Source: an uncultured Gammaproteobacteria bacterium | GTDB lineage: Bacteria; Patescibacteriota; Patescibacteriia; UBA9934 | Assembly (NCBI GenBank): GCA_964414795.1 | Contig: CAYPWV010000004.1 | Location: 1,591 to 65,590 of the forward strand | DNA: 64,000 bases | Reading direction: 5' to 3' | Shown: one piece after another, positions 30,101 through 62,787 of the stretch | Layout: each line of letters opens with the position of its first letter | Numbering within the stretch: the first letter of the stretch is position 1 | Translations under genes and position numbers: made by a program | Notes under the pieces: model-generated | Told to the model about the DNA's origin: nothing | The model's database searches: none | Seen by the model: the letters and a program-made list of their open reading frames with translations, nothing else

Positions 30101-30135
30101 TCGTCATTCCGGACTTGATCCGGAATCCATCGCAT
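30101..30135. repeat. REP-like palindromic repeat, family B (single copy)
   Basis: TCGTCATTCCGGACTTGATCCGGAATCCATCGCAT. The same consensus occurs at 45.5, 50.3 and 62.7 kb. Confidence 0.65.
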
Positions 30136-30151
30136 TTCAAAAAATATCGAA

Positions 30152-30186
30152 CTAAAAAAGCTCGAAACATCGTTCGAGCTTTTTTT
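30152..30186. terminator. Perfect hairpin AGCTCGAAC-ATCG-TTCGAGCT with A-run/T-run (bidirectional terminator)
   Basis: Seen directly. Confidence 0.55.
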
Positions 30187-30196
30187 CGTATCGTTT

Positions 30197-30499
30197 CTAT
30201 TCGAGCGTTACGTGTGCATGATTTGCCAACTGAAAGATGTACGATTCTAGACGTTGGTATTTCGCGCGAAGAGAAACAAATTCGAGATCGAGTGTTTTAT
30301 GTAAAACGACAAACCCATCTATGTGGGTAATAAGATCACTCTTCAGTGTCTCTACTTCTTGCTTGGTAGCAAAACGTTCGAGATCTTTCTTGGTTGCAAA
30401 ATCTCGCAATTCCTCTTTTAGTTCCTTTTTGGTCACCATGTTATCGCGCATGAAGTGCACGATGTCGAGAATGTCCTGAAGCATGTGTTCTTGGCTCAT
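30197..30499 (-). CDS. Hypothetical small helical protein (100 aa)
   Basis: ORF only; charged coiled-coil-like (KKELKEELRDFATKKDLERFATKQEVETLKSDL). Confidence 0.35.
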   Translation of the reverse strand: MSQEHMLQDILDIVHFMRDNMVTKKELKEELRDFATKKDLERFATKQEVETLKSDLITHIDGFVVLHKTLDLEFVSLRAKYQRLESYIFQLANHAHVTLE

Positions 30500-30726
30500 A
30501 AAAAAACGTTATTGTTTATAAATACTGAAGCCAAGATCTTGAAAATATAAAAAGCTTCGAGGGATGTTCTTACTATAGAAAAGAGCACGACGTGCGTCAA
30601 CTTTCTTTTCTTCACTACATAACATTGACAAGCAAAAATTTTCTTGCAAAGCTCCATATGATGCTTATTTTGGCATTAACGACTCCCCACAAGGGAGCCG
30701 TGTATTTTTTTTAACAATATCTATGT

Positions 30727-32332: not shown

Positions 32333-35300
32333 TTATGGGGTAACAATAATTACTCCGCTATATTCGACCCAAGGATCAATATCTGAATTATCATCAGGAT
32401 AAATTGCGTACGAACACTCGCTATAAGTTTCATCAGATGCCGATTGTATATCATTACCAACCCCCGCAAAGCATCCTGATCGGCCGTCTTCATCGGCGAT
32501 GTTGCCGTCTTCGCACGTGCCCGTACACCAGCCCCAGTTATCGCGGATGTGGATGCGGGGTTTGAAGACGCAGGCGTCGGGGACGTCGTCGCCGGATTGA
32601 TCTACCCAGCAGGGGAAGGAATCGTAATCGTCATCGCCGTCGGCGGGGCTGTCGGAGCAGGCGGCAGAAGAATCGCGCAAGATTTCGGACGAACACGTGT
32701 AGATGTGATTGTACGTGAAGTAATACGGATCACAGCTTTCATCCGTGAGTCCCCACTCGGTTTCTAAGTCACATTTTGAATTTTGCGTGCCTTCTTGCAA
32801 GCCGCGGGCGTTTTTGAAGAAGTTATCATCGGCGTCGGATCCGGTGAAGGAACCGCCATCCACATCATCTCCCCAATCCACCATTACCCTACGAATAGGC
32901 AGCTGATTTTTATCTGCAGCTGCGTAGAATTTGATGGTAGCATTGAAGAACTGAACTCCGGATTGGTCACCCGTGTCTTGGCTGTTGAGCGTAATAGCCT
33001 CTTCTGTTCCCTCTTCACATAACACGCCGTCGTCAGAACAAGACCCTACATCAACCGACCACACTTGCGGAGCAGTTCCCTCTGCGGGACGAACATCGTA
33101 TGTCGTGTACGCATCTGCATCATCAGCACCGTAGCGATCGGCAGAAAGACCTGCGCTTCCCCATGCAGCATTCCAAGAATAAAGTGTGTCGTGGATGCCA
33201 ATATCTGCCGCAGCAAAGAGTTGGTTAACTCTACTAAAAACCGAAGCTGTTGCACCACTTGTAGGACTTACTGACCAAACCTCATCAACCGAGAAGCCCA
33301 CCTTATACAGCTTTAACGTAAAGTCGATGAATGAACGTGCGAGTGCCGTTGCAGGAGCCGTGAAGTTTTCGTATGCATCCGGCGCGTATTCGATGAAGTC
33401 ACCATCGCAAGAATTGAGATTGTCGGTACCATTAGGTGGTACCAAATTTCCATCACCATCCTCACATGCCGCAACTTGGAGCGGCGTTTCTGAGGCATCG
33501 CGGGTTCCTGGATTGGTGGTGATGAATCCAAACGGCGTAGGAACGGTATCGGCAGAGTATTCCATGTTGGGATAATCTGCGTCATTGATATTCGTGAATG
33601 TGGAGTTTGGATTAAGAATACGGTCCGTAAACGCGTATCCTGCGTAATTCGTTGCATCACTTACCTGGAGCACATTTTTACAAGACACATTCTCAAAGCT
33701 GGTATCTTCCTGGAAATGAAGATAGCGATAATTTCCATAAGAATCTCCTGCGTAATCTCCGGAATCGATATTGAAGACATTTGCCGCGAGTTCATCGGTG
33801 TATTCAACACCTTGCGCACGACAACTCTTGAGCGCTGTTGCCATATTGTCGAATTGCGCGAAACCATCGGCAGCAGCATCATCGCCATCACTTGGTTGAC
33901 GCCCTACCGCAAAGGAATTTTCAGGAAGAACACTCTCATAGTCGAAAGCTGAACTATATGCTTCAAGCATTGCCTCGGTGTATGCACCATCTGGGTCACA
34001 CGAACCTCCATCAGCATATGCACCCAGAGGAATGCAGACGTACGGGCAGTCATTTACTTCGAGTGAGGAATCACCTGTACATGCATCTGCCATATGGCCC
34101 AAACCATCCTCCCAAGCTGCTTGACCAAGCAACGTCCAGTATCCGTCAGGACATACGGCATTGTCTCCACACGCACTTATCGTTTCACTTGTATATGACT
34201 TACCGCGAGTAAGATCGCCGTCCCAATCGCTCTCCGCACATGCAATGTCGTTGTTATCATAAGAACCCGTATCCTCGGGAACGTTGCTCGTTCCCAAATC
34301 CACGTAAAAGTCGGAGTTTACACATGCGTAGGTGTCTTCAAAGTAGCCGGCTCCCGTGTATTTTGCTTGCAGATCGGTGTCTCCGGCCAATTCATCAACG
34401 GGCAACCATGAAATACATGCTTTCTTATTGCGATCGCCAAGAATGTTTGTTGACGTATCTTTCTCTAAACAGAAACCGTTGAGGCCGTACATCACATCTT
34501 CACGCGTGGTTTTTGCGCATGTTCCGCCTTCACCGCACTGTTCATTTTCTGTGCAGTAGCCACCTTCCCGATCACCGCTTTCACACAATCCCAACTGACC
34601 GTTTACATCAACACAGGTATCCGATGAACAGTTTGCATCTATAGTACAAATCGTTCCCGCATCAGCATAGGTTTCGAGATCTCCTCCGCAAACGGAGAAG
34701 TCTGCATCCCAGTCTTTGCCGTACACGCGAGAGTCTTGACCGTCACCAAACGTTACCTTGGTGTACGAACAATCGCAATCCTCACCATACGCACAGGTGG
34801 TGGTATTTTCAAAGCCAGAAAGCAGGCTGTACGGTAATGCATCGCCCTGCGGATCGCTTTCAACGGATCCTGGGTTTGCGGGCTCGTACCAACTTTCCAC
34901 CACTTCGTTGGGGAATGGACTATTGCTTTCGGGATATGCACGACAAATCTTTCCTTCGGTGGTGCCGTCGGTGTAGGTTTCACCGTTTGGTGTAAGCAAA
35001 CACTGACTATTTACGCACGAACCCAACTTCATTGCGGCATCGGCAACAAATGTTTCGCTTGAATCGCACGTGGTTGCATCCCCGGTCGCAGAATCATAAT
35101 CCTCAATTTCAACATCATCGCCCACATCTGCACATGCACCGCCGTAACACGTTTGTCCTTCGCTGCAATCTGCTGCGGTTTGACATGCGGTGCTGCTCAC
35201 GTCGTAACACGAACCCACAATACATGCGCCGTCTGAACACTGGTCGCTCGTTGCACATGCAGCGCCATTTTCTTCGCAGTATCCTACCGAGCACGACTCT

Positions 35301-38300
35301 CCTTCATCTTCTGAGCACGTACCCGCATTCAAGACAAGAGCGTAATCTTTTGCCTCAACGATTCCCGCAGCAACGGCGTCATCCGGCGACAAACACGTTC
35401 CTGCACCCGCAGGACCGCATCCTGCGTCCACATCATCACAGGTGCCTCGAAGATCTCCGTTGAAGTCACAATAGCCGATAGGACTTACATCAGCCTGAGT
35501 GAGCGCCTGAACTGGGAAAAGATTAGGGATCGCCATGCCCGAGTATTCATTGCCGTACCACGATGTATCGCGACTTGCATACCAATCCGTATCATAAATT
35601 ACTTCGGGTTTTTCAAAATCCCAATCGGAACAGAAAGAAGATCCTGTTGTTGCATCGTAATCTTTGCACAGTGCAATATCGCCACACGTGGTTACAAAGC
35701 TTGCGGTTGTGGCATCCCACTGCGTATTGGTACTTGAACATGAAAGCCATTCTGAGCAGGAACGATCGCGGTTTACTTTAAGCACGCTGTTCGTGTCGTT
35801 TTCCTGACGCGGCACGCTTGAGAATCCTGTTTCTGCAGAACCGCTTCTCCACTCACTGAATGCTCCTCCAAAAGAGGCTGTCGCAGAAAATGGGTCAACA
35901 CGCACCTGCGTTGCACAAGAAATTGCTTCAATATTTGCGCCGGATTCGCTTTGCACGAGCGGACAATCGGTAGCGTCGTAACACGAGCCACCGAACGTGT
36001 AGAGATCATCGCGATCGTAGTCGCGCGAACTAGTACGTTCGTCGGTAAGTTTTTCTTTGTATGTTGCTCCGTCGCTTAAATCGTACACTTCGCCGTAATC
36101 GTACACGCAGCGCGTTGCACATAAGTCGATCGTGTCTCCGCTTGCCGTGGTGATAGTAGTGTCTCCTGCGTTCTCGCAATCGATAGGGTCAACAAGACCA
36201 TACGCCTCTGTGCCAAAGAGGGTATCCGCATGACGACTTGCTACTTCGGTTGCCGATGCATTTGCCGAGAGCGACGTATCGCCGGTGTCGTAGAACATGG
36301 CGCAGCCGTTTTTGAGGGAAACTTGTCCATCACACTTTTGGCTATCTGAGAGACCGTACTCGCTTAGGCTGTCGTTATTGAGGTAGAAGTAGGATGTACC
36401 GTCGGTTGCGCCGTAGAGCTCGCCATCGTCTTGCGCAAGTTTATCTTGGAATTCGGTACATGTGTCGTACGTTGCTGAACACGTACCTGCCCAGCCCGTA
36501 AATCCATCATCGCCATTATTCCAAATACCCGATTCCGTTCCTCCAATAACGTACGAAGGATTTTCTGCGTTACACGTTTCATCTGATGCGCAGTCTGCGT
36601 TGCTTCCACAGGCATCTCCTTCGTTGCCAAGGGTATCTTCACATGTTCCGTAACAGAAATCATCGGTTTCGGTGCGGAACCAGCCGGTGTATGCCGTGCC
36701 GTCAACCGTCACATCGGTACGATATTCGCACGTTTGGTTGAGCGGATGTTTAAAGTAGAACGTTTCTGCTTCATTTGTAGTAAATGCATCACAGAAAAGC
36801 TCATCGTGCGCACAGAGAATATCGTCGTACGTATCCGGAAGATTCATGAGGTACACGCTGTCGGCTCCCTCGGTGCTGTTGCGATCTTGACTCCACTCCG
36901 GATCACCCAGTTCCATACATCCCGCAACGTCGTCATCACACGTTACCGCATCGTTTACCACAAGGAACATGTCTTGATCTGCCGGCACCACGGTTGTTTC
37001 TGGGCCGTAGGAAACCGCCGTATTATCCATGTCCCATGCAGGAGTAAAGCCGTCTTGCGTAAACAAGCATGACGACTCTCCTGCGGAAATCGTACATAAG
37101 TACGCTGAATCGGTATCAAATGAAGTATCACTAAAGGTAAAGTAATAACATGCGGTTGCCGACGTTGCGATGTCGGGCAAACCGTCGCCATCTATATCGA
37201 GGTTGTTACACGTTGCGTGGTAGGTTTTTGCAGACGTGCTTTCGCTTTCTTGCGTTTTAAAGAATGCCGCACACCCCACCTTATCTTCATCGCACAACGA
37301 ACTAAAGCTCTTCAAATACGCAGTATCCCCTTCTTGCGTGGTGTACTCCTGGCAACCAAGGTAATACTGCGGGCTTGTTTCTCCAGTGAGCGACTGATCG
37401 CATGACGCAGGTGTAACCCAAGAATCGCGAATGACATTGAGGCTTTCTTCTCCTTCGCGGAGCACCACATTGTCCACGTACGCCGAACCCGTAGGAATAA
37501 GCACGAGTGTTGTGCCGTCACCAAAATCGGGATACGTATCCGCATCCATAATGAGCGGGCCGAGATTAAGCACTTGCCAACCGTCATCAAGCTCAACCGC
37601 ATCATCAAAAGCAATGTCGATTTCTGGCGCAGCAGGATCGGCATTGAAGTCAAAACCAAGTTGCAGCGTTCCGGTTCCCTTTGCAACCACGCTTACCGTG
37701 TAGGTTTTTCCTGCAAAAAGTTCGTTATCAAGCGTTCCGCAGTACGTACTTTCTTCTGAGATGGTGCATTCGCCACCAAAGCTCCGCGATGTGCCATCGC
37801 AGCCCGACGCATCGGTACATGCAGATCCGTTATCGACAATGAATGACGTAACCGGACCGGTAAGCAGCATGGAATGACCGTCTGCCGCAAGCGATTCGTT
37901 ACTGTACGTTGCATCCGATGCCGACTCTGCATCCCAAGAATTCAACGTTCCGTCTTCAAAAAGATCTTCAAATACCAAGCGACTGTTGCGGCTTCTGCCT
38001 CCTGCATACGCACGACAGCCATTTGCAGCTTCTTCGCACGACGTGCTTTCTTCGCTGTATCCGTAGTAGCGGCACTCACCCGAATCTGAAACATAGTAAC
38101 CGCCTGAATCTTCACACGTTGCCTCCTGATCTGCGGCAGTATCACCTGCGATTGTGGTTTTGCGATATGCCTGACATGCATCATTTACCGTAACGGTTTG
38201 TTGCCAGTTTCGGTAATGAATATTGCCGTTTTCATCATAGAATTCGCGACAATCGGGGTTGGTGAAAATGTCTGCACGCGCGTTGCAATCCTCACTATCC

Positions 38301-41300
38301 CAATCATAAACGCTATCCCCGTCATCATCGGTTTCATCGGCACAGGTAATGCCGTCATCATTTGCTATCCAGCTGCTACAAGGTGCCTGGTCAGGAGCAG
38401 TATCGGTAACGCCGTCGGTACCCGTGTGCGTGTAGTCGGAAGATCCAAGATTTGATTGGAGTAATTTCCAGGTACGCAATTGATAGCCATCTTCATCAGA
38501 TCCTTCCCACGTATAGTACGTTGCGCCATTATCGGAAGAAACATTTGCATCTGCTTGTGCCTGCGTTACACATGCGCGCATGAAGCTGTAATATTCCTGC
38601 TCTTCGCTGGTAAGATTAGTAAACTCATCACATCCTACTTGCTCCGCAGAACATTCGGTTGCAGTATCGGGGATAAAGTACACCGAATCAACACCGTCAG
38701 GTTCATACAGCGTTGCTTCTTGGCGGTACGTGTCGTAGCCCGAGCACTCTGCGGGACATGTATCTAGTTCTGTAGCGATACCCGAGATGTCGGGATCACC
38801 GTTTGTTGGCGTATACATCGTGCAGCCCATGTCTTGCTCGCTACATACCTGTGCATAGTTTGCGCATTCTGCAGGATCATCCTCACTTCCGGTGCATCCC
38901 AAATACGTAGGAGCAACTTTCACAACAACCGTGGAATAATTCGTGTCGTTATAACCTTCCACCGGAGAAGAAACATCTTCACCTTGTTCAAGCTGCACGC
39001 TGTCGATGTAGCCATTAAAAGGATGTAACGTGAGATCGCCAAAAATACGCAACGAAGAGTCGCTCAGCGGAGGAACGGTAAACGTACAAGAGAAACGCTC
39101 GTAGTCTGAAGATGCGGGCTGCATATCTTCAATACCTACGCCTGTGGTAACCGCAGATCCAGCAAGATTGGTGTACGAGTCATCACAATTTCCCGTTATT
39201 GCAAGCCCCTCGATATCGATCCCTGTTCCTGTTTCGTCGTACAAATCAAGAGAAACGGTTGCAGAAGCGCTGTCTCCGTCATCTCTTTGGCGTGCATAAA
39301 ACGACAACGTGTACGTACGCGCCTGTCCGAGTTCAATTCCTGGCTGATACAGCGCGCCGCTGCCGTCTGATTCTCCGGGAGAAACCGCCACCTCACCTTC
39401 ACGCGCATACGAACCGTCGGTGGAAATGGTGGATGACCAAGAAGTATCAGTCGTGTGCAGGTTGTACCATCCATCGGGCTCTTCATCGGTATCGTCATCT
39501 TGCTCAAAGCTTGGATTATGTACCGTGTTTAAGCGCAAATCTGTATCACGCTCAATAAGCGTAGAACATCCGCCATTTTCTTCGTCACACTCCTCTACCT
39601 GGCTGTTGAAGTAGATGCGATCTGCATATTTTGCAGTATCTGCATCGGCGTCGGCAATGCTGTCGATAGCTGCATATGCATAGGTGCCATCTTCTTGCTC
39701 TTCTTTTTGCGTTGCATACCATCTACAGCCCACGGTATCTTCGGTGCAAGGACCCGGATCAACGGTATTTTTTAAGAGCGCGGTTGATGTACCTTCTGAA
39801 TCTTCAAATGCCAAACAGGATGCCGCATACTCTGGGCAACTTTCCCCACGGAATCTCCAGGTATTTTCTTCGGCAACACAGTATCCGTAGCCTCCTACGC
39901 AATTGCCATTTTCATCTTGGGCAATACAGCTGGGCATGTCTACACACGACTGCGCACGTTCATCCGCTTTGTCGGTAAGGAGCGTTTCACCGTAGGTTTG
40001 CATGCGGCACTGCGTATCGGGGTATTTGAGCACCCAGTCTGGATCGATCATTTTGCACCAGGGATGATTATCATCGGGGAGACCGTCGGGACCGCACGAG
40101 GTAAAACCGTCCATGACCTCTTGCAATGTTGCGGGATCTTCTACCGGATTTGCGGTTGCATTTGCGGCAAGTTCCCAGCCGATAGAAATAACCCGTGCTT
40201 TACGCAACTTTACCAAGTTTCCGTAACAAAAACCGTACGTATAACAAAATGCATCTTGATTTCGCGCAACGTCGGCGGCAGGAATAAGCGGCCACGAACC
40301 GTCAAGCAAGCCCTCATCAATTGCCTCTGCAACGGTGAGTGGCGCTCCTGCATCTGCACGAGCAACTGCGGAGATAAAATTAGCATCAGCAACACAGTTA
40401 TACAGTCCGCGAGAATCCGAACCTGGACAAGTAATGAAATCGGAAAGGATGCTGTAATTGCTTATTTGTAAAGGTGAAAAAGCAAGCAGAGAGCGGTACC
40501 TCTGCGCCGCGTCTTCGGTAGTATCGAGCGCAAAACTTTCCGGATCGAATGGATCAACCTGCGTGGTATCAAAATCAAACATGCCTTGCCAAATACGCTC
40601 TTGAACCTTTGATAATAACGTGTTACTAAACACGCTTCCCGCATGCACACCCAACGACAAGAGCAGATCTTTGTTTGTTAACATGGCGAACGTTGCCTGT
40701 TCTCTTACCTTTGTGCTCGCGTCTTGTGATTCTTCTACTTGCTTCTCAAGAATACTTGCAGGCGTTTCCACTTTTTGTGTAATAGCATTAACGACATCTT
40801 TAAAACCATTATCTTGCAACTTCTTTTGTACGCCAATAAATGGAAGAAGTGTTGTTTCTCCAAAAATATCTGTGGAAAGCTGCAATCCTGCACCAAATTC
40901 CGCTTTTTGCGGATCATACATGTTTGCAAGCTCTTTCAGAATAAGCTGATTTTTTTCTCCATCAGATTTATCTGTGAGATCTGCAATAAAAGAATTCCAC
41001 GTTCCTTCGGGGCCAAACATTTTGTTAAAATCACATTTTGGCTCGGGACGTTTATATACACCTTTAATGCCAAGTTTAAATTGTATCAAGGTGTAGGGAG
41101 ATGACGGTGCGCACAAATTAAAATTCGATAACAAACCTCCCGCACCTTCGATGGTGTCGGAAAGTGAGCCGATAGCTTCTCCAGCGATATCAGCACCTAA
41201 TTGCCCCAAATAAGTTCGTTCGGGCGTGCCATCGTAGAGCGGCTGTTCGGCAGGGCCACCGGTTGCAATACGTACCGCAGCATCGTATGCCAAACGATCA

Positions 41301-41524
41301 GCGGTAAAAGAAACTGTATTCACCAGTGCGGTTGCAACTGCGGCTTGCATGGTACTTTGTAAAAAGTATTTCACGCTATCTTTTACCCAAATAGCAAACT
41401 GTTGTGCATCAAAAACTGGAGCGCCTTGTGCGTGCGCGATATTTGCCCCCAAGAGCGGCGTGCTCAAAAAAAACAACGCCAGCCAGGCAGTAAAAAGCTT
41501 TTTTGCAAAATCATGAATACGCAT
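32333..41524 (-). CDS. Giant secreted Cys-rich protein (3063 aa), probably cell-surface/adhesion
   Basis: One uninterrupted 9.2-kb ORF. Signal peptide MRIHDFAKKLFTAWLALFFLSTPLLGANIAHAQ. A less Cys-rich N-terminal ~330 aa is followed by a large number of Cys residues with D/G/T/Y/S/E richness. At least two stretches resemble jelly-roll/CBM-like domains (..DGWYNLHTTDTSW..; ..DGTLNSWDAESASD..). Antisense ORFs are spurious. Confidence 0.85.
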   Translation of the reverse strand: MRIHDFAKKLFTAWLALFFLSTPLLGANIAHAQGAPVFDAQQFAIWVKDSVKYFLQSTMQAAVATALVNTVSFTADRLAYDAAVRIATGGPAEQPLYDGTPERTYLGQLGADIAGEAIGSLSDTIEGAGGLLSNFNLCAPSSPYTLIQFKLGIKGVYKRPEPKCDFNKMFGPEGTWNSFIADLTDKSDGEKNQLILKELANMYDPQKAEFGAGLQLSTDIFGETTLLPFIGVQKKLQDNGFKDVVNAITQKVETPASILEKQVEESQDASTKVREQATFAMLTNKDLLLSLGVHAGSVFSNTLLSKVQERIWQGMFDFDTTQVDPFDPESFALDTTEDAAQRYRSLLAFSPLQISNYSILSDFITCPGSDSRGLYNCVADANFISAVARADAGAPLTVAEAIDEGLLDGSWPLIPAADVARNQDAFCYTYGFCYGNLVKLRKARVISIGWELAANATANPVEDPATLQEVMDGFTSCGPDGLPDDNHPWCKMIDPDWVLKYPDTQCRMQTYGETLLTDKADERAQSCVDMPSCIAQDENGNCVGGYGYCVAEENTWRFRGESCPEYAASCLAFEDSEGTSTALLKNTVDPGPCTEDTVGCRWYATQKEEQEDGTYAYAAIDSIADADADTAKYADRIYFNSQVEECDEENGGCSTLIERDTDLRLNTVHNPSFEQDDDTDEEPDGWYNLHTTDTSWSSTISTDGSYAREGEVAVSPGESDGSGALYQPGIELGQARTYTLSFYARQRDDGDSASATVSLDLYDETGTGIDIEGLAITGNCDDSYTNLAGSAVTTGVGIEDMQPASSDYERFSCTFTVPPLSDSSLRIFGDLTLHPFNGYIDSVQLEQGEDVSSPVEGYNDTNYSTVVVKVAPTYLGCTGSEDDPAECANYAQVCSEQDMGCTMYTPTNGDPDISGIATELDTCPAECSGYDTYRQEATLYEPDGVDSVYFIPDTATECSAEQVGCDEFTNLTSEEQEYYSFMRACVTQAQADANVSSDNGATYYTWEGSDEDGYQLRTWKLLQSNLGSSDYTHTGTDGVTDTAPDQAPCSSWIANDDGITCADETDDDGDSVYDWDSEDCNARADIFTNPDCREFYDENGNIHYRNWQQTVTVNDACQAYRKTTIAGDTAADQEATCEDSGGYYVSDSGECRYYGYSEESTSCEEAANGCRAYAGGRSRNSRLVFEDLFEDGTLNSWDAESASDATYSNESLAADGHSMLLTGPVTSFIVDNGSACTDASGCDGTSRSFGGECTISEESTYCGTLDNELFAGKTYTVSVVAKGTGTLQLGFDFNADPAAPEIDIAFDDAVELDDGWQVLNLGPLIMDADTYPDFGDGTTLVLIPTGSAYVDNVVLREGEESLNVIRDSWVTPASCDQSLTGETSPQYYLGCQEYTTQEGDTAYLKSFSSLCDEDKVGCAAFFKTQESESTSAKTYHATCNNLDIDGDGLPDIATSATACYYFTFSDTSFDTDSAYLCTISAGESSCLFTQDGFTPAWDMDNTAVSYGPETTVVPADQDMFLVVNDAVTCDDDVAGCMELGDPEWSQDRNSTEGADSVYLMNLPDTYDDILCAHDELFCDAFTTNEAETFYFKHPLNQTCEYRTDVTVDGTAYTGWFRTETDDFCYGTCEDTLGNEGDACGSNADCASDETCNAENPSYVIGGTESGIWNNGDDGFTGWAGTCSATYDTCTEFQDKLAQDDGELYGATDGTSYFYLNNDSLSEYGLSDSQKCDGQVSLKNGCAMFYDTGDTSLSANASATEVASRHADTLFGTEAYGLVDPIDCENAGDTTITTASGDTIDLCATRCVYDYGEVYDLSDGATYKEKLTDERTSSRDYDRDDLYTFGGSCYDATDCPLVQSESGANIEAISCATQVRVDPFSATASFGGAFSEWRSGSAETGFSSVPRQENDTNSVLKVNRDRSCSEWLSCSSTNTQWDATTASFVTTCGDIALCKDYDATTGSSFCSDWDFEKPEVIYDTDWYASRDTSWYGNEYSGMAIPNLFPVQALTQADVSPIGYCDFNGDLRGTCDDVDAGCGPAGAGTCLSPDDAVAAGIVEAKDYALVLNAGTCSEDEGESCSVGYCEENGAACATSDQCSDGACIVGSCYDVSSTACQTAADCSEGQTCYGGACADVGDDVEIEDYDSATGDATTCDSSETFVADAAMKLGSCVNSQCLLTPNGETYTDGTTEGKICRAYPESNSPFPNEVVESWYEPANPGSVESDPQGDALPYSLLSGFENTTTCAYGEDCDCSYTKVTFGDGQDSRVYGKDWDADFSVCGGDLETYADAGTICTIDANCSSDTCVDVNGQLGLCESGDREGGYCTENEQCGEGGTCAKTTREDVMYGLNGFCLEKDTSTNILGDRNKKACISWLPVDELAGDTDLQAKYTGAGYFEDTYACVNSDFYVDLGTSNVPEDTGSYDNNDIACAESDWDGDLTRGKSYTSETISACGDNAVCPDGYWTLLGQAAWEDGLGHMADACTGDSSLEVNDCPYVCIPLGAYADGGSCDPDGAYTEAMLEAYSSAFDYESVLPENSFAVGRQPSDGDDAAADGFAQFDNMATALKSCRAQGVEYTDELAANVFNIDSGDYAGDSYGNYRYLHFQEDTSFENVSCKNVLQVSDATNYAGYAFTDRILNPNSTFTNINDADYPNMEYSADTVPTPFGFITTNPGTRDASETPLQVAACEDGDGNLVPPNGTDNLNSCDGDFIEYAPDAYENFTAPATALARSFIDFTLKLYKVGFSVDEVWSVSPTSGATASVFSRVNQLFAAADIGIHDTLYSWNAAWGSAGLSADRYGADDADAYTTYDVRPAEGTAPQVWSVDVGSCSDDGVLCEEGTEEAITLNSQDTGDQSGVQFFNATIKFYAAADKNQLPIRRVMVDWGDDVDGGSFTGSDADDNFFKNARGLQEGTQNSKCDLETEWGLTDESCDPYYFTYNHIYTCSSEILRDSSAACSDSPADGDDDYDSFPCWVDQSGDDVPDACVFKPRIHIRDNWGWCTGTCEDGNIADEDGRSGCFAGVGNDIQSASDETYSECSYAIYPDDNSDIDPWVEYSGVIIVTP

Positions 41525-42298: not shown

Positions 42299-42582
42299 GG
42301 AAGTTCTGAAGTGGTGAAGATATGAAGTTGGGAAGATGTGAGTAGGGGCGGAACATCTTCCGCCCGTACTGAAGTGAGTGGATGTTATGTTTTTGTTGGG
42401 ATGAAGATGAAAGACAGCAGACTACAGACGGCAGATGGAAGAAATGATTTGAGGTCACAAGATCCTGAGCTCGGCGAAGGATCTCGAGAAGACCATTTGT
42501 CAGGAGACTTTTCCGTTCCATCCGTCCGATAGGTTCTTCCGATCACTTCAAACTCTTAACTTCCAGCTTCAAACTCTTCTCC
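42299..42582. repeat. MITE-like composite palindromic repeat, family A copy 2
   Basis: Modules are a GAAGT-rich arm, GGGCGGAACATCTTCCGCCC hairpin, GTACTGAAGTGAGTGGATG, GACAGCAGACTACAGACGGCAGATGG, CACAAGATCCTGAGCTCGGCGAAGGATCTCGAGAA, and the CACTTCAAACTCTTAACTTCCAGCTTCAAACTCTTCTCC arm. About 80% similar to the copy at 44.3 kb. Its end is translated as the rsmA C-terminus. Confidence 0.75.
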
Positions 42583-45489: not shown

Positions 45490-45574
45490 GCGTCATCCCG
45501 GGCTTGACCCGGGATCCATCGTTATTTAATTAAGCTATTGGCGATGGATGCCGGATCGGTGTCCGGCATGACGA
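45490..45574. repeat. REP-like family B, inverted pair
   Basis: GCGTCATCCCGGGCTTGACCCGGGATCCATCGTT ... AACGATGGATGCCGGATCGGTGTCCGGCATGACG, between the prfB stop and the epimerase start. Confidence 0.7.
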
Positions 45575-53307: not shown

Positions 53308-54576
53308 TTATGCTGCATCTGTTGAATTCTCATCAAGAACCTCGGGTGTTTCGAGGGAAACTTCGTCCGTGCTTGATACTTCTTCTGACGCAGAATCTTC
53401 GGCTGTAGTTGCAGGTTCAACCACCACACCTTCTTCTAAGATATTAATTTTCCAGCCCGTCAACCGAGCTGCCAAGCGTACATTTTGTCCTCCACGACCA
53501 ATAGCAAGAGAAAGTTGTTCTGTTGCTACTTTTACGGTTGCAACGCGTTCTTCTTGATTAAGATCTAGCGAAATAATTTTCGCAGGAGCAAGCGCTTGAG
53601 TGATGAAGTGCGTAGGATCATCATTCCATTCAATAATATCAATCTTTTCTCCCGAAAGTTCAGCGATAATGGTTTGAATGCGCGTTCCCCGCTGACCGAT
53701 ACATGCACCGATAGGATCCACACGAGGATCGCGCGAAGACACGGCAATTTTTGTACGAGATCCTGCCTCACGTGCAATGCCACGAATTTCTACTGCGCCT
53801 TCGCTTATTTCGGGAATTTCTGTTTCAAAAAGCTTTTGCACGAGCATTTCGTGCGTACGAGAGAGCAAAATCTGTGGACCACGTTGACCCAACGATACCT
53901 CTCGCACATACACTTGCACGCGATCTCCCGAGCGATACCGATCGGTGGTCATTTGATCTTCTGGGCGCAAAATTCCTGCGGTGCGACCAATATCCACTAA
54001 CACAATGCGACCTTCGCGGCGCTGGACGGTTCCGGTAATCACGGTTCCCTCAATATCTTTGTATTCATTGAAGATAATTTCTCGCTCAGCCTCGCGGAGC
54101 TTTTGCATAATGACCTGCTTTGCGGTCATGGCTGCCATGCGACCAAATTCTCCCGGCAAAGGCAGTTCGCGGCGCAACGTTTCGCCAAGGGCTACACTCA
54201 TCTTCAATACCCGTGCATCAGAAATCATGATGTCGGTTTTTGGATTAAATACCGGCCCGCTTTCCGAAGGAAGATCTTCGGGGATAACCTCTCCCGCAAT
54301 ACGACGTGCTTCACGAAGTGAAGACGCTTCCGCTTCTTTTTGACGAATTTCTTCAAGCTCCTCGGGAGAAATATCTTCAACAACGGTTTTTACATCAAAT
54401 ACGCGAACACCTCCCGTTTCGGGATCAAATTGCGCTTCGAGATTGTGATATTTATCACCAAAATCTTTGCGATACGCTGCAGCAAGTGCGGCTTCAATAG
54501 TTGAAAGTACCGATTCGTACGCTAAACCTTTTTCCTCACAAATTTGACGCATGGCTTGTTCGATTGCAGAAGACAT
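53308..54576 (-). CDS. nusA: Transcription termination/antitermination factor NusA
   Basis: N-terminal domain followed by S1 and two KH domains (..GIAREAGSRTKIAV..; ..IGQRGTRIQTI..; ..AIGRGGQNVRLAARLTGWKI). Confidence 0.9.
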   Translation of the reverse strand: MSSAIEQAMRQICEEKGLAYESVLSTIEAALAAAYRKDFGDKYHNLEAQFDPETGGVRVFDVKTVVEDISPEELEEIRQKEAEASSLREARRIAGEVIPEDLPSESGPVFNPKTDIMISDARVLKMSVALGETLRRELPLPGEFGRMAAMTAKQVIMQKLREAEREIIFNEYKDIEGTVITGTVQRREGRIVLVDIGRTAGILRPEDQMTTDRYRSGDRVQVYVREVSLGQRGPQILLSRTHEMLVQKLFETEIPEISEGAVEIRGIAREAGSRTKIAVSSRDPRVDPIGACIGQRGTRIQTIIAELSGEKIDIIEWNDDPTHFITQALAPAKIISLDLNQEERVATVKVATEQLSLAIGRGGQNVRLAARLTGWKINILEEGVVVEPATTAEDSASEEVSSTDEVSLETPEVLDENSTDAA

Positions 54577-54589
54577 AAGTGAAAAGTTT

Positions 54590-54680
54590 GAAGTTGATAG
54601 TTAATAGTTTGAAGTGATTGGTATCCTTCTTTCTAAACGAATGACCTGGCGGAACAGCCAGGTCAGATATATGCAGAATA
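54590..54680. repeat. Partial family-A repeat (GTTTGAAGT x2 + GACCTGGCGGAACAGCCAGGTC hairpin)
   Basis: Shares the GTTTGAAGTGA motif and a GGCGGAACA-type hairpin with the full copies. Located between the nusA start and the yraN stop. Confidence 0.5.
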
Positions 54681-57963: not shown

Positions 57964-58058
57964 CCCAAACGTCCATACTGCGCAGTGAAAAGAGAGGGGG
58001 TAATTTCGAGATGTAAAATAAAAAGCTACAAAAAAATCTCTCCTTAAACGGAGAGATT

Positions 58059-58802
58059 TTAAATGACGAACTTCCGTTCACGGCCGGTGATGACGCGCAG
58101 GCGCGCGGGGAGGGTGCGGAAGGAAAATTCTTGGGCGATGATTTTTTTTCCGTCGGCTTGAAGGGTTACTTGTTTTGGTGCGTAGACGCGCATGTTGGCA
58201 ACGTGCACTTTTCCTACGTCGTGCTTTTTTCCAAAAAGGGATAAACGAGCAAGACGGGTTACGAGCGTTAACTTTCCGTCGGTTGGGCTTACCACGCCTA
58301 CATCCGGCACTTCGGCGGAAAGATTAATATACGAAAATTGTGTTCGGCGTTTTACCGAAAGCGTGTAGCGGTCATCGCACGAAACCACACACCCTGTTCC
58401 GTCCATCGTTGCCTCGTGCAAAAACCGATGACCATTCACCTCGCCCATATCAATATCCTCAACCAAACGCGCAGAAAGAATGTCGCACGCTGCAACGCCC
58501 TGAGGAACGCCCAAAAGTTCTGCAAACGGATTGTCTGGAGTGATGGGAATGTAGCCCACCACGGTGCGCGTTTCTTCAACGGCATTGAGCACTTTTTCGA
58601 GCGTTGCATCGTTTCCTACTGCGACGATCGTTTTGATGCCTTTGCGAATTTCTTGGTGCAACACTTGCTGTACATCGCGAAAAAAAGCAAGCCGGACAAT
58701 GTTGCCGGTAATGCCAAGATCGGTAAGGCGCGTTTCTATGAGACTAATATCTCGCTCGTACCGCCGATCCTGAAGAAAATCATCGTAAACGTAGATGTAC
58801 AT
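58059..58802 (-). CDS. Diacylglycerol/lipid kinase catalytic-domain family protein (DAGK_cat/YegS-like)
   Basis: TIVAVGNDATLEKVLNAV resembles the GGDGT nucleotide-binding motif region. Confidence 0.55.
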   Translation of the reverse strand: MYIYVYDDFLQDRRYERDISLIETRLTDLGITGNIVRLAFFRDVQQVLHQEIRKGIKTIVAVGNDATLEKVLNAVEETRTVVGYIPITPDNPFAELLGVPQGVAACDILSARLVEDIDMGEVNGHRFLHEATMDGTGCVVSCDDRYTLSVKRRTQFSYINLSAEVPDVGVVSPTDGKLTLVTRLARLSLFGKKHDVGKVHVANMRVYAPKQVTLQADGKKIIAQEFSFRTLPARLRVITGRERKFVI

Positions 58803-58804
58803 GG

Positions 58805-59086
58805 GGGAAGTTGGAAGTTTGTAGTTGTTAGTTTGAAGTGAGTGGATGTTGTTTTGAGTAGGATCCTGAGCTCTGCGAAGGATCTATCGGACAACTAAGA
58901 GAGTCTTCTCATAAATGGGTTTCTCTAGATCCTTCCCTTCGGAGGACCTCAGGGCGCCGCGCAGAGCTCAGGATCTTGTGACCTGGAAGTTCCTTCGGTC
59001 GACTTGAAATCTCCCTCAGGATGACACACTAACCTAAAAGCCTTCCTTTCACTTCAAACTCTTAACTAAAAACTTCAAACTCTCAC
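58805..59086. repeat. MITE-like composite palindromic repeat, family A copy 4
   Basis: GTTGTTAGTTTGAAGTGAGTGGATG arm; GGATCCTGAGCTCTGCGAAGGATC with inverted partner GCAGAGCTCAGGATCTTG; terminal CACTTCAAACTCTTAACTAAAAACTTCAAACTCTCACC. Confidence 0.7.
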
Positions 59087-59479
59087 CTACTCTTCACTCT
59101 CCGCGCTCTTCTTTCCTCCTTTTTTCCCTACATTCACCACCTGCGCAGCTTCTTCACCCATGCGTACCGTACCATTTACCTGAGCGCCGGCGTTTACCGA
59201 AAGCACATCTACCGACAAATCGCCTGTAAACTTTGAAGAAGGCATAAGTTCAAGCTTTCCTAAAATGTGCATCGTACCTCGAACATCTCCCGAAATAACT
59301 GCATTTTGCGCACGAATATCGGCCTCAACCTTTGCGCCGTCACCAATACGCAAATCGCCTGCGGTGGTGATTGTTCCACGAACTTCTCCCTCAATAACAA
59401 TGTCCCCTTCTGCAATAAACTCTCCCTCAATACGGACACCGTGCGCAATGATTGTTTCGTTGTAGGTATTTTTTGCCAT
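59087..59479 (-). CDS. Bactofilin (polymer-forming cytoskeletal protein)
   Basis: Repetitive beta-helical bactofilin domain (GDIVIEGEVRGTITTAGDLRIGDGAKVEADIRAQNAVISGDVRG) with a charged tail. Confidence 0.75.
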   Translation of the reverse strand: MAKNTYNETIIAHGVRIEGEFIAEGDIVIEGEVRGTITTAGDLRIGDGAKVEADIRAQNAVISGDVRGTMHILGKLELMPSSKFTGDLSVDVLSVNAGAQVNGTVRMGEEAAQVVNVGKKGGKKSAESEE

Positions 59480-59496
59480 AAGATGGATAGAGTGTG

Positions 59497-61200
59497 TTAC
59501 ATTTCTTCAATTGCTGCAATGCCAAGGAGGCCTAGGGCGTTAATAAGCACCTGACGCACGGCGCTACAAAGTGCCAACCGCTCTGCGGTTCCCTCGAGAT
59601 CATCTTCTGAAAGGACGCGTACGGATTCGTAGTATCGAGCATATGTTTGTGCGACATCAAAGGCGTATTGAGCAATGACCGATGCCTTGAGCTGCAGTCC
59701 GGCTTGTAAAACGACTTCGGGATATCTCGCAATCGCCAGAAAAAGTTCGCGCTCGAGTGCGTGCCCTACGTGTGTTATTTCTTTTGCGGGCTTTACCCCT
59801 GCTTTTTTAAGGATGCTTGAAATGCGCGCGATGGTATACATCACGTAGGGTCCAGTAAATCCCTCAGCTGCCATCGCCTCTTCCATGGAGAAGGTGATCA
59901 CCTTATCTGGATCTTGTTTGAGCATGCCAAACTTGATGGAAGCAAAGAGCAGGGCTTTTGCCGTTTTTTGAACTTGCTTCTCTTTCCAATCTGCATGACG
60001 AGAGCGGATGGCTTCGACAAGTTTTTTCATCATGGTATCTCTTACGAGGCTCCACCGAATTGCCGTGCCCTTACGAGAGCTCATAGCGCCCTCGGGAAGA
60101 GTTACAAAATCATATCCCAAATGCACCACTTCTCGAGCAAAGCCCATTTTCTTGAGCGTTGCTGCAAGCTGCTTCATGGCAAGTGCCTGGCGAACGTCGA
60201 TTACATATAAGGAACGGTCTGCGTGATAATCTTGTTCTTTATGCAACGCAAGCGCGAGGTCTTTTGCGTTGTAGAGCAATGTTCCATCGGTTTTGCGCAG
60301 TAAATTTACTCCGAGTTTTTCTTCCTCAAGATCAACAATTGCTGCACCTTGAGACATTTTTGCAATGCCGTCGGTAAGCAACTTTTTTACAATTTCGTGT
60401 GACTCTTCAATGAAATCATGTTCGAGATAAATTTTATCGAGCTCTAAACCAAACTCGGCAAATACTTCTTTCAAACCGTCCATCGACCACTTGTGTGTTT
60501 TTTTCCAAAGCGCGACATGTGGACCTTCCATGTTTTCTAAATCGCGTTGGATTTGGGAAACTTCAGCCCGTTTTGTGTCATCATTTTCTACCGCTGCAAC
60601 GCCTTCAACATAGGCGGTATCGAGAAAGTTTAATTTATCTCCCTCTGGTTCAACGTCAGGATAAATATGCATCAGACCCCAAATACACTTTGCAACATTG
60701 TTTCCAAGATCGTTGATGTAGGAAACTGGAACAACCTCATATCCGTTTGCACGAAGGATCTCTACCGCGGATTGCCCGACGGTAAAATTGCGAATGTGCC
60801 CGATGTGGACATCTTTATGCGTGTTGAGATTTGCATACTCCACCATCACGCGTTTTCCTTTTCCGGTGGTTCCTTTTCCGTACCGACTCTTTTGCGTAAG
60901 AACATCCTTTACGGCATGTGCGGCAAAAGCATCGGTGTTGAATACAAAGTTTACATAGGGTCCAACTGCATGAATACGGCTAATAAGCGGGGATGGTCCG
61001 ATTTTTGCAGAAAGTTCGATAGCGATTTCCGCAGGATTGCGCTGCATGCCTTTTGCAAGTTGGAAACAGGGAAAGCTGAGATCTCCGTACTCTGGTTTTG
61101 GAGGTGCAGAAAGCATGTCACCCGTAACGGTGAATGTTTTGCCGATGTGCTTTTTAAGCGCGGTGAGCGCTTCTTTTTTTGCTTGTTGGAGGGCGTACAT
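59497..61200 (-). CDS. argS: Arginyl-tRNA synthetase
   Basis: Class I HIGH (DVHIGHIRN); C-terminal DALR anticodon-binding domain (..YAFDVAQTYARYYESVRVL..). Confidence 0.9.
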   Translation of the reverse strand: MYALQQAKKEALTALKKHIGKTFTVTGDMLSAPPKPEYGDLSFPCFQLAKGMQRNPAEIAIELSAKIGPSPLISRIHAVGPYVNFVFNTDAFAAHAVKDVLTQKSRYGKGTTGKGKRVMVEYANLNTHKDVHIGHIRNFTVGQSAVEILRANGYEVVPVSYINDLGNNVAKCIWGLMHIYPDVEPEGDKLNFLDTAYVEGVAAVENDDTKRAEVSQIQRDLENMEGPHVALWKKTHKWSMDGLKEVFAEFGLELDKIYLEHDFIEESHEIVKKLLTDGIAKMSQGAAIVDLEEEKLGVNLLRKTDGTLLYNAKDLALALHKEQDYHADRSLYVIDVRQALAMKQLAATLKKMGFAREVVHLGYDFVTLPEGAMSSRKGTAIRWSLVRDTMMKKLVEAIRSRHADWKEKQVQKTAKALLFASIKFGMLKQDPDKVITFSMEEAMAAEGFTGPYVMYTIARISSILKKAGVKPAKEITHVGHALERELFLAIARYPEVVLQAGLQLKASVIAQYAFDVAQTYARYYESVRVLSEDDLEGTAERLALCSAVRQVLINALGLLGIAAIEEM

Positions 61201-61289
61201 AGTAATGAGTTGGGCTAGTGGGGCTAGTAGGCTAGGTAAGAAACATGCTTATACCTAGCCCGCCTAGCACAACTAGCCTACTTTAGAAC

Positions 61290-62669
61290 TTATTTAACTA
61301 ATCTCACAAATCCTCTTTTTCCCTTCTGCAATACCAGTGGCAATGCAGAGGCATCAATCTTCATCTCTTCATCCTTCACTACTTCATTACCTACCTTCAC
61401 ACCTCCTTGCCCAATTAACTGACGAGCATTTGTTTTTGATGTGGCTAATTTGGTGTTCACGAGAATGTCGACAAGCGGCGTTCCGTCCGCAACGTGCACT
61501 TCGTCCATTTCTTCGGGTGCGGCATGCTCTTGGAAGACTTGGACGAAATGCGCACGAGCTTTCTCCCCTGCTTCGTTGCCATGATAGAGGCCAACGACAC
61601 GTTCTGCGAGTTCCATTTTAATATCACGAGGATTTTCTCCGGAGTCGAGGCGACTCTTTATGTTCGTGAGATCAGCTTCTGTTGCGTCGAGCACGTACGT
61701 GAAATATGACGTAATCATGCTATCGCCCATGGACATGATTTTTCCAAACATGTCCTCTGGTGCATCATCGATTGCAATCATACCGCCTTCTGATTTGCTC
61801 ATTTTCTTTCCTTCGTCGTTTGTCAGCAACTTTACTGCAACAACGAACTTTTCTTTTGGTTTGTGGCCAAGAACACCCGCTTTCATAAGCGTTCGACCTG
61901 CGAGCATGTTGAACGTTTGATCGTTTCCGCCAATTTCGATATCAACATCCATCGCAACAGAATCAAATCCTTGCATGAGCGGGTACATGAATTCGTGGAG
62001 ACCGATTGGAGATGGAGGTAAAAACTTACTCTTATCCCCTGCGATATAATTTAATTTTTTACAAACAGAACATTTTACTCGAGTTTCTTTAAAAATATCA
62101 CTATTTGTTTCTTCAAAAACCTCCAAAGATTCAAATGAAAATGGAGAGATGAAGGTATTTTTGCAAGAGTCGCAAATAATTTTCCAACTCGAACGCTTCT
62201 CGAACATGTCGCGTTCCATCATTTGTTGCACGGTAAATTGAGACGAAAGCTCAACAACTTCCTTGAGGGTCAATTTCGCGAGCCATTCGTCGTTGAATAG
62301 CATTTTTGCAGGATTTTCTCCGTCGAAGCGAATGATTTTTGCCGCTTGTCCTTTGTACGTTTGCGCGTTCGCCATCACTTCGTCGGCTGTGAGTTGCTTG
62401 CGGGTTGCAGCTTTGTCGGTTGGGTCACCGATCATTGCGGTAAATGAACCGATGAGCAAAATGACCTCGTGGCCGAGATCTTGAAACTCACGCAGCTTTT
62501 TGAACTGCATGGCATGGCCGATGTGGAGGTGGGGAGAAGTTGGATCAACACCCACGTACAAGCGGAGCTTTTTTCCGGATTCGAGAACCTTTTGGAGAGC
62601 TTCGGCAGTTGGATAGACGCGCTCGACGTTATGCGTGAGGACGTGGTTGATAGGATTAGGGATTTGCAT
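61290..62669 (-). CDS. tyrS: Tyrosyl-tRNA synthetase with Zn-ribbon insertion
   Basis: HIGH (SPHLHIGH), KMSKS (KMSKSEGG), C-terminal S4-like domain. Inserted CxxC..CxxC segment (CDSCKNTF..KCSVCKKLNY). Start chosen at MQIPNP because upstream ATGs lie inside the REP repeat. Confidence 0.85.
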   Translation of the reverse strand: MQIPNPINHVLTHNVERVYPTAEALQKVLESGKKLRLYVGVDPTSPHLHIGHAMQFKKLREFQDLGHEVILLIGSFTAMIGDPTDKAATRKQLTADEVMANAQTYKGQAAKIIRFDGENPAKMLFNDEWLAKLTLKEVVELSSQFTVQQMMERDMFEKRSSWKIICDSCKNTFISPFSFESLEVFEETNSDIFKETRVKCSVCKKLNYIAGDKSKFLPPSPIGLHEFMYPLMQGFDSVAMDVDIEIGGNDQTFNMLAGRTLMKAGVLGHKPKEKFVVAVKLLTNDEGKKMSKSEGGMIAIDDAPEDMFGKIMSMGDSMITSYFTYVLDATEADLTNIKSRLDSGENPRDIKMELAERVVGLYHGNEAGEKARAHFVQVFQEHAAPEEMDEVHVADGTPLVDILVNTKLATSKTNARQLIGQGGVKVGNEVVKDEEMKIDASALPLVLQKGKRGFVRLVK

Positions 62670-62680
62670 ATATGTACTTA

Positions 62681-62787
62681 TCGTCATGCCGGACACCGAT
62701 CCGGCATCCATCGTTTCTTGATGCGCTGGATCCCGGGTCGAGCCACTGTCGTTCGCGAACGACGTGGTCGAGCCCGGGATGACGAAG
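62681..62787. repeat. REP-like family B inverted pair with inner palindrome
   Basis: TCGTCATGCCGGACACCGATCCGGCATCCATCG ... GGATCCCGGGTCGAGCC-(ACTGTCGTTCGCGAACGACG)-TGGTCGAGCCCGGGATGACGAAG, between the valS stop and the tyrS start. Confidence 0.7.

Follow-up and report, generated by a model that had tools for sequence, protein, structure and literature searches.

The dRS3 units of Neisseria cluster in large mosaic intergenic arrays and serve as integration sites for phages and insertion sequences (ISs), while the Rickettsia palindromic elements (RPEs) lie in frame within protein genes, those for membrane proteins included, and add a surface or loop peptide to the product. The series RPE-1 to RPE-8 was reportedly set out by Ogata et al. 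in 2000 and 2002. Members of both groups were placed in the CGTC superfamily of repetitive extragenic palindromes (REPs; families CGTC-1 to -4) by Di Nocera, De Gregorio & Rocco (BMC Genomics 2013, PMC3733652), with R. conorii RPE-6 and Neisseria dRS3 assigned to CGTC-1 and R. conorii RPE-4 to CGTC-4. A CGTC REP consists of an unpaired CGTC tag (variants TGTC or CCTC), a stem of 8-9 bp that begins with A then T, a loop of 4-5 nt (other lengths in some families) and a 3-nt unpaired tail, CCA (PMC3733652). The same survey found that HH dimers (tags outside) predominate, usually with spacers of 20-100 bp, that the repeats sit just after the upstream open reading frame (ORF), between co-directional or convergent genes, that intragenic in-frame copies exist and contribute 20-30 aa when they are dimers, and that there is no associated transposase and no known mobilising enzyme (PMC3733652). 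Here a 64-kb stretch of the metagenome-assembled contig CAYPWV010000004.1, termed the window, was analyzed; it derives from a Patescibacteria (candidate phyla radiation, CPR) bacterium and carries a small family of hairpin repeats, one dimer of which, P50, lies within a membrane-protein gene of the Wzy_C/O-antigen-ligase family. We put at roughly 85% the probability that these units are CGTC-tagged REPs, that is small non-autonomous hairpin repeats, and that P50 stands in frame in the Wzy_C gene with the protein left intact. The element is a member of the published CGTC family, and its host phylum is absent from the list of the 2013 survey, which covered Proteobacteria, Chlorobi, Bacteroidetes, Spirochaetes and Thermotogae (PMC3733652).

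Half-site searches allowing one mismatch recovered seven units at four loci in the window, comprising one singleton (U1) and three inverted pairs (P45, P50 and P62; Table 1), and no further copy was found by these searches; the full consensus had a chance expectation of 0.00 (100 shuffles). An earlier note on this DNA had described a REP-like palindrome, usually in inverted pairs, and all four of its loci were present at or within 3 bp, although two of the pairs were found to end at 50295-50390 and 62681-62785 and not at 50296-50393 and 62681-62787. Each unit is laid out as (T/G)CGTC, AT-N-CCGG-R, loop, Y-CCGG-N'-AT and CCA-TCG, with a stem of 8 bp. The (T/G)CGTC head is unpaired and directly precedes the stem in 7/7 units, and ..AT-CCA closes every one of the seven. 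U1, U2 and U4 have the 5-nt loop CTTGA, and U3, U5 and U6 the 6-nt loop CACCGA. In all three pairs the CGTC ends lie outside and the CCA ends stand face to face over 10-20 nt. U3 and U6 are identical 33-mers located 17 kb apart, and U4 has already diverged from the consensus, with a GCGTC head and CAGG instead of CCGG. The G+C content of the units is 55-70%, against ~47% for the window. The extra inner palindromes that had been noticed in the pairs, CCTGCCTGTCCGGTAGGCAGG in U4 and CACTGTCGTTCGCGAACGACGTG in U7, were both located (Table 1), and excision of 30 bp from U7 yields a canonical unit, CGTCATCCCGGGCTCGACCCGGGATCCAGCG, which is present as such in fetched loci.

A covariance model trained on 44 short units was then run over the whole window with filters off. 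The five canonical units scored 47-50 bits (U1 50.2 bits, with a hairpin of -11.2 kcal/mol) and the hairpin part of U4 scored 17.5 bits, values that are partly the product of construction because the training set included several window units; U7 was missed on account of its nested insert. The informative outcome of the run is the absence of further copies: nothing else in the window exceeded 13 bits, and no more diverged copies were detected. No credible ORF crosses U1.

The pairing of the stem was explored by comparing units from many genomes. The free stem position N/N' was complementary in 144/148 units, with four pair types represented. In the 44-sequence alignment 99.1% of stem cells pair, compared with 86.7% in shuffles and <=53% with a slid partner, six of the eight stem pairs being fixed by the search pattern so that two pairs are informative, both of which covary. 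The covariation of the free stem positions points to selection on each hairpin and not on the dimer termini, and the data show each unit to be a hairpin under selection with conserved unpaired ends. A pyrimidine precedes CGTC in 122/148 units, which may represent an extension of the recognition motif. The dimers were also predicted to fold as RNA at -41 to -59 kcal/mol, with z-scores of -4.6 to -6.4 against dinucleotide shuffles (P45, -40.7/-48.2 kcal/mol, z -4.6/-5.4; P62, -56.8/-59.0 kcal/mol, z -4.7/-5.5), and the REP-like character proposed in the earlier note was borne out by both the covariation and the folding.

The units resemble CGTC REPs in the head, the AT-start 8-bp stem, the CCA tail, the HH dimers (CGTC outside at 3/4 loci), the placement of copies after stops and the lack of a linked transposase. 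They were assigned to this group because every testable defining feature was found, except that three units carry a 6-nt loop. The published S. alaskensis peptide WTPDQVRGD implies the very loop type seen here, ACTTGAT (PMC3733652), while the spacers between the ATCCATCG blocks, at 10-20 nt, are slightly under the usual 20-100 bp. Intragenic peptides already described include RHPGLDPGS... (E. litoralis dnaE2), WTPDQVRGD (S. alaskensis truB) and, in R. conorii, VIPAKAGI, SFPRKRES and DSRFRGND, with antiporter, NADH-dehydrogenase, AmpG and transporter genes among those concerned (PMC3733652), and the window peptide frames RHPGHRPG..., ...RPDQVRHD and VIPDLIRNP match the reading frames of these peptides.

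The comparison with Rickettsia had been offered as an analogy and proves to be more than that, since the CGTC superfamily contains RPE-4 and RPE-6, which share the CGTC architecture with the units described here (PMC3733652). In both systems an in-frame palindrome occupies a conserved gene and is absent from orthologues (19 in this case). Note, however, that the classic in-frame element, RPE-1, has an unrelated sequence and a greater length (~100-150 bp), that Rickettsia units have A+T-rich stems (VIPAKAGI, SFPRKRES) whereas a CCGG core is present here, and that Rickettsia is an obligate intracellular alpha-proteobacterium whereas the present host is a groundwater-type CPR bacterium. Neisseria dRS3 belongs, like these units, to the superfamily (CGTC-1; PMC3733652), but it forms arrays whereas singletons and dimers are dispersed here. 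REPINs, the inverted REP doublets studied together with REP-associated tyrosine transposases (RAYTs) by Bertels & Rainey 2011 and Nunvar et al. 2010 (cited in PMC3733652 and PMC6006769), are replicating hairpin units, and whole dimers are likewise conserved between genomes here. In contrast to the CGTC heads of the present units, REPINs have GTAG or GTGG heads together with a cognate RAYT gene flanked by REPs, and no Y1/HUH (RAYT) transposase was found in the window or between the paired units of other loci. A literature search by sequence, using CCGGACTTGATCCGG, gave no match, and a search on Patescibacteria with REPIN found nothing relevant. The novelty of the observation is tempered, as the family is already described across many phyla and in-frame copies, membrane proteins included, are already catalogued; the in-frame P50 insertion is one more example of that behaviour.

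The distribution of the motif was examined by scanning one genome per species with the pattern CGTCATNCCGGN{7,37}CCGGNATCCA. Among the matches listed were Bradyrhizobium, Bosea, Afipia, Sphingomonas, Nocardia, Methylococcaceae, Desulfobacterales, Dehalococcoidia, Sulfurovaceae, Pirellulaceae, Elusimicrobia, Patescibacteria and others, in which the unconstrained loop was often ACTTGAT and the layout was often a heads-out pair. The CACCGA loop was absent from short-middle units among the matches listed in this cross-phylum genome scan; a metagenome scan found the CACCGA-loop variant on 59 contigs, with one groundwater site contributing many of these. Also among the matches listed, an identical 28-mer, CGTCATGCCGGACTTGATCCGGCATCCA, was seen in delta-, alpha- and gamma-proteobacterial metagenome-assembled genomes, with a T/A stem variant of it in Dehalococcoidia, Sulfurovaceae and Patescibacteria (Table 1). 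Some pairs have a 'GTCATTCCCGCGAAGGCGGGAATCCAG'-type partner, for example at L013, L051 and L056.

The P50 dimer comprises 96 bp, or 32 codons, and its minus-strand translation within the Wzy_C ORF is RHPGHRPGIHRFLMRWMPAYRTGRPDQVRHD. One of the three frames is open through P50 on each strand, and the open frame on the minus strand is the frame in use; the copy would have survived because it is exactly 96 bp long and lies in the one stop-free frame of that strand. The earlier note had placed an in-frame insert of ~33 aa in this gene. The ORF is indeed continuous and its flanks align with homologues, which disposes of the idea of two genes split at the repeat, but the length is 32 codons. The closest of 124 Wzy homologues is 54% identical, and the named relatives are from 'Patescibacteria group', Uhrbacteria and Magasanikbacteria. 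In an alignment with 19 homologues the segment RPGIHRFLMRWMPAYRTGRPDQVRHDA was present in the window protein alone, and hence is not ancestral, while the N-terminal 70 residues and everything past the insert aligned with the orthologues and all 38 invariant family columns were kept. At the DNA level, the 96-bp block (50295-50390) sits between conserved codons. The peptide GIHRFLMRW, which the earlier note had also read from the 62.7-kb pair, does occur in a frame of that pair, antisense to tyrS/valS.

An AlphaFold2 model of the Wzy protein, built on the alignment, was confident overall, at a predicted template modelling score (pTM) of 0.79, with a predicted local distance difference test score (pLDDT) of <50 at residues 81-103, between helices H45-70 and H102-118. 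The prediction places the P50 insert as a loop between the second and third predicted helices, with the rest of the fold intact. Because R and H abound in the loop, and its counterpart in homologues is basic too, the positive-inside rule would make it cytoplasmic. The peptides that would span the two P50 junctions are VVRHIRHPGHRPGIHR and DQVRHDACLPSAI. Ribosomal bypassing or splicing of the insert was rejected as unnecessary, the frame being open and the length a multiple of three.

Table 1. Positions of repeats, genes and related loci. Coordinates are those of the window unless a contig (L number) is given.
Feature	Position	Strand	Details
U1, single unit	30101-30132/35	+	TCGTC + ATTCCGGA CTTGA TCCGGAAT + CCA TCG; intergenic
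P45, HH dimer	45490-45574		U2 45490-45521 (+), AT-rich spacer 45522-45541, U3 45542-45574 (-)
P50, HH heterodimer, 96 bp	50295-50390		U4 50295-50347 (+), spacer 50348-50357, U5 50358-50390 (-)
P62, HH dimer, 105 bp	62681-62785		U6 62681-62713 (+), spacer 62714-62723, U7 62724-62785 (-)
Nested hairpin CCTGCCTGTCCGGTAGGCAGG, 21 bp	50318-50338		Within 3' stem arm of U4, between CCGG and CAT
Loop insert of U7, 30 bp	62744-62773		23-bp palindrome CACTGTCGTTCGCGAACGACGTG (62744-62766) plus second GTCGAGC copy
Wzy_C/O-antigen-ligase-family gene, 478 aa	49160-50596	-	Wzy_C 6.9e-13
prfB	45576-46691	-	PCRF/RF-1 domains in orthologue; stop codon 45576-45578
NAD-dependent epimerase gene	44565-45482	-	ATG 45480-45482
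valS, 3' part	62795-63961	-	Stop 62795-62797
tyrS	61290-62669	-	Probable start ATG 62669, 11 nt past P62 dimer
In-frame unit	L135		GT4 glycosyltransferase
In-frame unit	L140		RluA-type pseudouridine synthase
In-frame unit	L156		Valyl-tRNA synthetase (ValRS)
Loci of the CGTCATGCCGGACTTGATCCGGCATCCA set	L010, L013, L014, L031, L035, L040, L050, L051, L066, L111, L120, others		
CTGCCT-type nested hairpins	50318-50338; L001:801-821; L166:2908-2925; L157:2363-2381, 3897-3914; L144:1138-1155		
ACAGAC/GTCTGT repeat	49320-49415 (-), 50239-50293; L002:6260-6335		
Composite repeat family	19999-20196, 29209-29280, 29618-29656, 42372-42581, 44340-44583, 54580-54632, 58797-58885, 59029-59100		
Terminase-small-subunit-like helix-turn-helix protein	7800-8315		Part of defence island
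Two type II DNA methyltransferases adjoining Gabija	8284-9069; 9071-10345		Second with ParB-N domain
GajA	11219-13267		PADLOC 3.8e-281
GajB	13171-15003		PADLOC 7.9e-253

Two of the dimers lie between genes. The prfB stop and the epimerase ATG, both genes being on the minus strand, are separated by 93 nt, of which P45 accounts for 85; it starts 1 nt past the stop and ends 7 nt short of the ATG. An empty site is available for comparison, since in the syntenic relative L002 the prfB-epimerase gap is 3 nt, and no unit was found in 30.8 kb of syntenic DNA of L002 and L003, the covariance model included. P62 starts 9 nt past the stop of valS, and valS and tyrS are both on the minus strand. In this case the longest, mechanically called tyrS ORF begins at 62711, within U6. 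However, the Pfam domain tRNA-synt_1b begins only at residue 46 and an in-frame ATG at 62669 is the probable true start, so that P62 is most likely intergenic. Gene callers may add a 14-residue repeat-derived N-terminal extension to the tyrosyl-tRNA synthetase. The minus-strand sequences past the hairpins, GCGCAUGCUAUG at P45 and UAAGUACAUAU at P62, contain no U-run, and intrinsic (Rho-independent) terminators were therefore rejected for both. An Rfam scan of the whole window at gathering thresholds returned five tRNAs only and no RNA family on the repeats, and readings as attC sites or CRISPR repeats were dropped because their defining motifs are absent.

The favoured interpretation of these data is that two inverted units with their heads outside form an HH dimer, which would fold into one long hairpin or a branched structure. 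P45 and P62 would have landed directly past stop codons in minus-strand operons, to be transcribed there as structured spacers, while P50 would have landed inside the Wzy_C-family gene and be read through as a 32-residue Arg/His-rich loop, with the Wzy protein staying intact. An intragenic copy would persist only if, by its length and frame, it leaves the ORF open and if it falls in a tolerant loop. The comparisons between loci show the dimer behaving as a replicated unit, with insertions next to stop codons and occasionally inside genes. An enzyme acting in trans may move the elements by recognising the hairpin in single-stranded form, together with its CGTC and CCA ends, as is the case for RAYTs and GTAG REPs.

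Several points weigh against this account. The published loop range of 4-5 nt accommodates neither the 6-nt CACCGA loops of U3, U5 and U6 nor the nested hairpins of U4 and U7. The census covers one 64-kb window of the genome, with just seven units spread over 33 kb, and the 50.3-kb block is known from an assembled metagenome contig. Translation and tolerance of the P50 insert are predictions, and the proposed trans mobilisation is an analogy with RAYTs and GTAG REPs. In addition, no mobilising gene was found: a comparison of ~50 window ORFs with Pfam returned no transposase domain, the only related hit being HTH_Tnp_1_2, in the Sf6 terminase-small-subunit-like helix-turn-helix protein at 7800-8315. 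Likewise, none of the longest ORFs between paired units at 10 other loci encodes a transposase; these ORFs comprise a hydratase, a cupin protein, a GTP cyclohydrolase, aminotransferases, a racemase, DsbD and three without a Pfam hit.

It could be that the elements serve the host mainly as RNA or DNA signals, for instance as mRNA 3'-end stabilisers, translation decouplers or gyrase/IHF-type sites. P45 and P62 lie between co-directional genes, 1 and 9 nt past the stops, which is a placement reported for REPs acting on mRNA (PMC3733652); moreover, the predicted structures are very stable, and P45, which stops 7 nt short of the following ATG, could cover the region where ribosomes load. However, the close relatives manage with a 3-nt gap at the prfB-epimerase junction and no copy in 30.8 kb, copies occur within coding sequence too, and the hairpins are not intrinsic terminators as no U-tract follows them. 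Such signalling is unlikely to be the main role of the elements. Note that it is compatible with their identity as CGTC REPs, the two not being exclusive, and that a host-beneficial role of the operon-internal dimers, in mRNA stabilisation or translation uncoupling, is possible.

A second alternative concerns the gene that hosts P50, which could be dead or dying, the insertion then being recent and its open frame coincidental rather than selected. With one frame in three open and a length that is a multiple of three in about one case in three, an intact ORF would arise by chance about 1 in 9 times. The same gene has a second repeat-derived low-confidence loop (residues 402-419), and, with the nearest orthologue only 54% identical, the insertion may be of any age. 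Against this, most of the nearly invariant residues are kept in addition to the 38 invariant ones, there is no frameshift or stop in 478 codons, and the 4-bp overlap (ATGA) of the Wzy ATG with the stop of the upstream gene is preserved. The drift of U4 from the consensus argues that the P50 copy is not brand new, and in-frame copies recur elsewhere in essential genes, for example those for ValRS and RluA. A decaying gene is therefore quite improbable, and the reading of P50 as a tolerated in-frame CGTC REP dimer is preferred.

MITEs (miniature inverted-repeat transposable elements, such as Correia/NEMIS, ERIC and RUP) are small non-autonomous repeats that are sometimes intragenic and in frame (PMC10969869; PMC2229807), and the dimers could be of this kind, that is deletion derivatives of an IS with a DDE transposase, moved by cut-and-paste and bounded by terminal inverted repeats and target-site duplications. 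The dimers, at 85-105 bp with perfect-looking terminal inverted repeats of ~33 bp, have the expected appearance. However, MITEs are IS-derived and carry target-site duplications, whereas no parent IS was seen here and the borders of the three dimers are free of direct duplications (TAAT|..|GCATGCT, CACAT|..|ATGTC, ACTTA|..|AGACT); nor were duplicated bases found when P45 was compared with the empty site in L002. A 4-bp inverted match, ACAT/ATGT, around P50 was considered as a target-site signal and judged to be chance, the other dimers being without one. Single units exist (U1 and the L001 copy), the covarying free stem positions point to selection on each hairpin, and no transposase was found in the window or between the paired units of other loci. 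A MITE origin is accordingly very unlikely.

Equally, the 96-bp block in the Wzy gene could be an assembly artefact, a repeat-induced chimera, given that the source is a metagenome-assembled contig and that short dispersed repeats can mislead short-read assemblers. However, typical reads or k-mer-resolved paths are longer than the block, one and the same orthologous gene carries on in frame on either side of it, similar in-frame inserts turn up in independent assemblies of other samples, and the deposited NCBI protein (P0001) has the same 478 residues. An artefact thus has very little probability. Finally, that the 32 residues are ancestral coding sequence merely resembling a repeat is effectively refuted, since, although homologues differ here in how long their loop is and in its sequence, the segment is present in 0/19 of them and the DNA has the canonical form of an HH dimer, matching dimers in unrelated contigs at 82-84% identity over ~100 nt.

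In-frame copies of CGTC units were found elsewhere. The Wzy orthologue P0007 (JGI contig L001) contains a single CGTC unit in frame in another loop, with the same 21-bp nested hairpin as U4 at the matching position. In three of the 59 contigs with the CACCGA-loop variant (L135, L140 and L156; Table 1) the residues that the unit encodes are flanked by Pfam domains on either side, and the ORF of L142/L166 contains two dimers in frame. Whole dimers of the P50 type occur in L130, L138 and L161, where they share with P50 the unit, the spacer, the second unit and the extra hairpin and are 82-84% identical over ~100 nt. GatA and GatB encoded on two contigs with the CACCGA variant are ~50% identical to those of the window, and between genomes with only ~50% identity at the protein level, whole dimers share 82-92% identity.

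More tentatively, CGTC REP dimers may be currently mobile in ~1-Mb CPR genomes without a RAYT-like transposase, and in-frame 'exonisation' may be a recurrent source of lineage-specific loops in CPR proteins. The mobility is supported by the identical 33-mers 17 kb apart, by the 82-92% identity of dimers and by sister genomes that are without the family, and the examples of 'exonisation' would be Wzy at two or three independent sites, GT4, RluA and ValRS. We regard this broader proposal as possible but doubtful.

Other palindromic repeats were observed in and around the same genes. The GTCGAGC sequence in U7 forms a 7-bp direct duplication (62737-62743 and 62767-62773) that flanks the nested palindrome, and it is the only duplication-like signature at any insertion of this study. 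The CTGCCT-N-CCGG-N-AGGCAG hairpin, to which CCTGCCTGTCCGGTAGGCAGG belongs, recurs nested within several different repeat types (Table 1), in the manner of a module or of a tiny palindrome that is mobile in its own right. The window Wzy ORF also contains, in frame, a second palindromic repeat that is unrelated to the first and rich in ACAGAC/GTCTGT; there it encodes residues ~402-430 (TTDGRRQTTDVSES...HLPSTICY) that are absent from homologues and have pLDDT <50, and a half copy of it abuts the P50 dimer. The L002 Wzy orthologue has a full copy of this repeat at an N-terminal loop (DRRQTTDGR...SIVCCLLS). Two further Wzy orthologues (P0003, at L003:10614-10694, and P0004) contain a different in-frame palindromic dimer, TGTCATCTCGAGCGAAGCGAGAGATCC ... 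GATCTCTTACTACGTTCGAGATGACA, with a TGTC head; it encodes EILKNQVQESRRSLTTFEMTGK in the central loop, at the place taken in L001 by the CGTC unit, and a copy of the P0003 type with a nested CTGCCT hairpin is present at L166:2890-2945. In L141 (2516-2682), a protein with a pectate-lyase domain has three tandem 69-bp repeats with a CGTC unit in each, and these repeats (…svipgtdpesssssadtesgsstt…) form a Ser/Thr-rich linker.

The remainder of the window contains several unrelated features. A large composite intergenic repeat family, with modules GTTTGAAGTGA..., ACAGACGGCAGA... and GATCCTGAGCTCGGCGAAGGATCT in both orientations, is probably the 'Family A' of the earlier note. A defence island at 7800-15003 includes a complete Gabija pair. 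A giant ORF of 3063 aa (32333-41524, minus strand) has a counterpart of 3089 aa in L002 with a weak CBM_4_9 hit. In the ORF at 53308-54576 (minus strand), the NusA N-terminal domain extends over residues 7-166, compared with 119 positions in the Pfam profile, which suggests an insertion of ~40 residues, common to relatives of similar length.

The presence of these units extends the host range of CGTC REPs to the candidate phyla radiation, and the motif is also found, among the matches listed, in Actinomycetota (Nocardia), Chloroflexota (Dehalococcoidia), Planctomycetota and other groups. Repeat-derived peptides in CPR proteins, together with N-terminal extensions such as that of the tyrS ORF starting at 62711, can distort alignments and gene calls. 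The tiny genomes of CPR bacteria, some with the family and some lacking it, leave an unusually small space in which to look for the mobiliser of CGTC REPs. If the proposed mobility is true, the mobiliser would lie within a very small gene set, or would be a core replication or repair enzyme, and it could be found by comparing REP-rich with REP-free sister CPR genomes.

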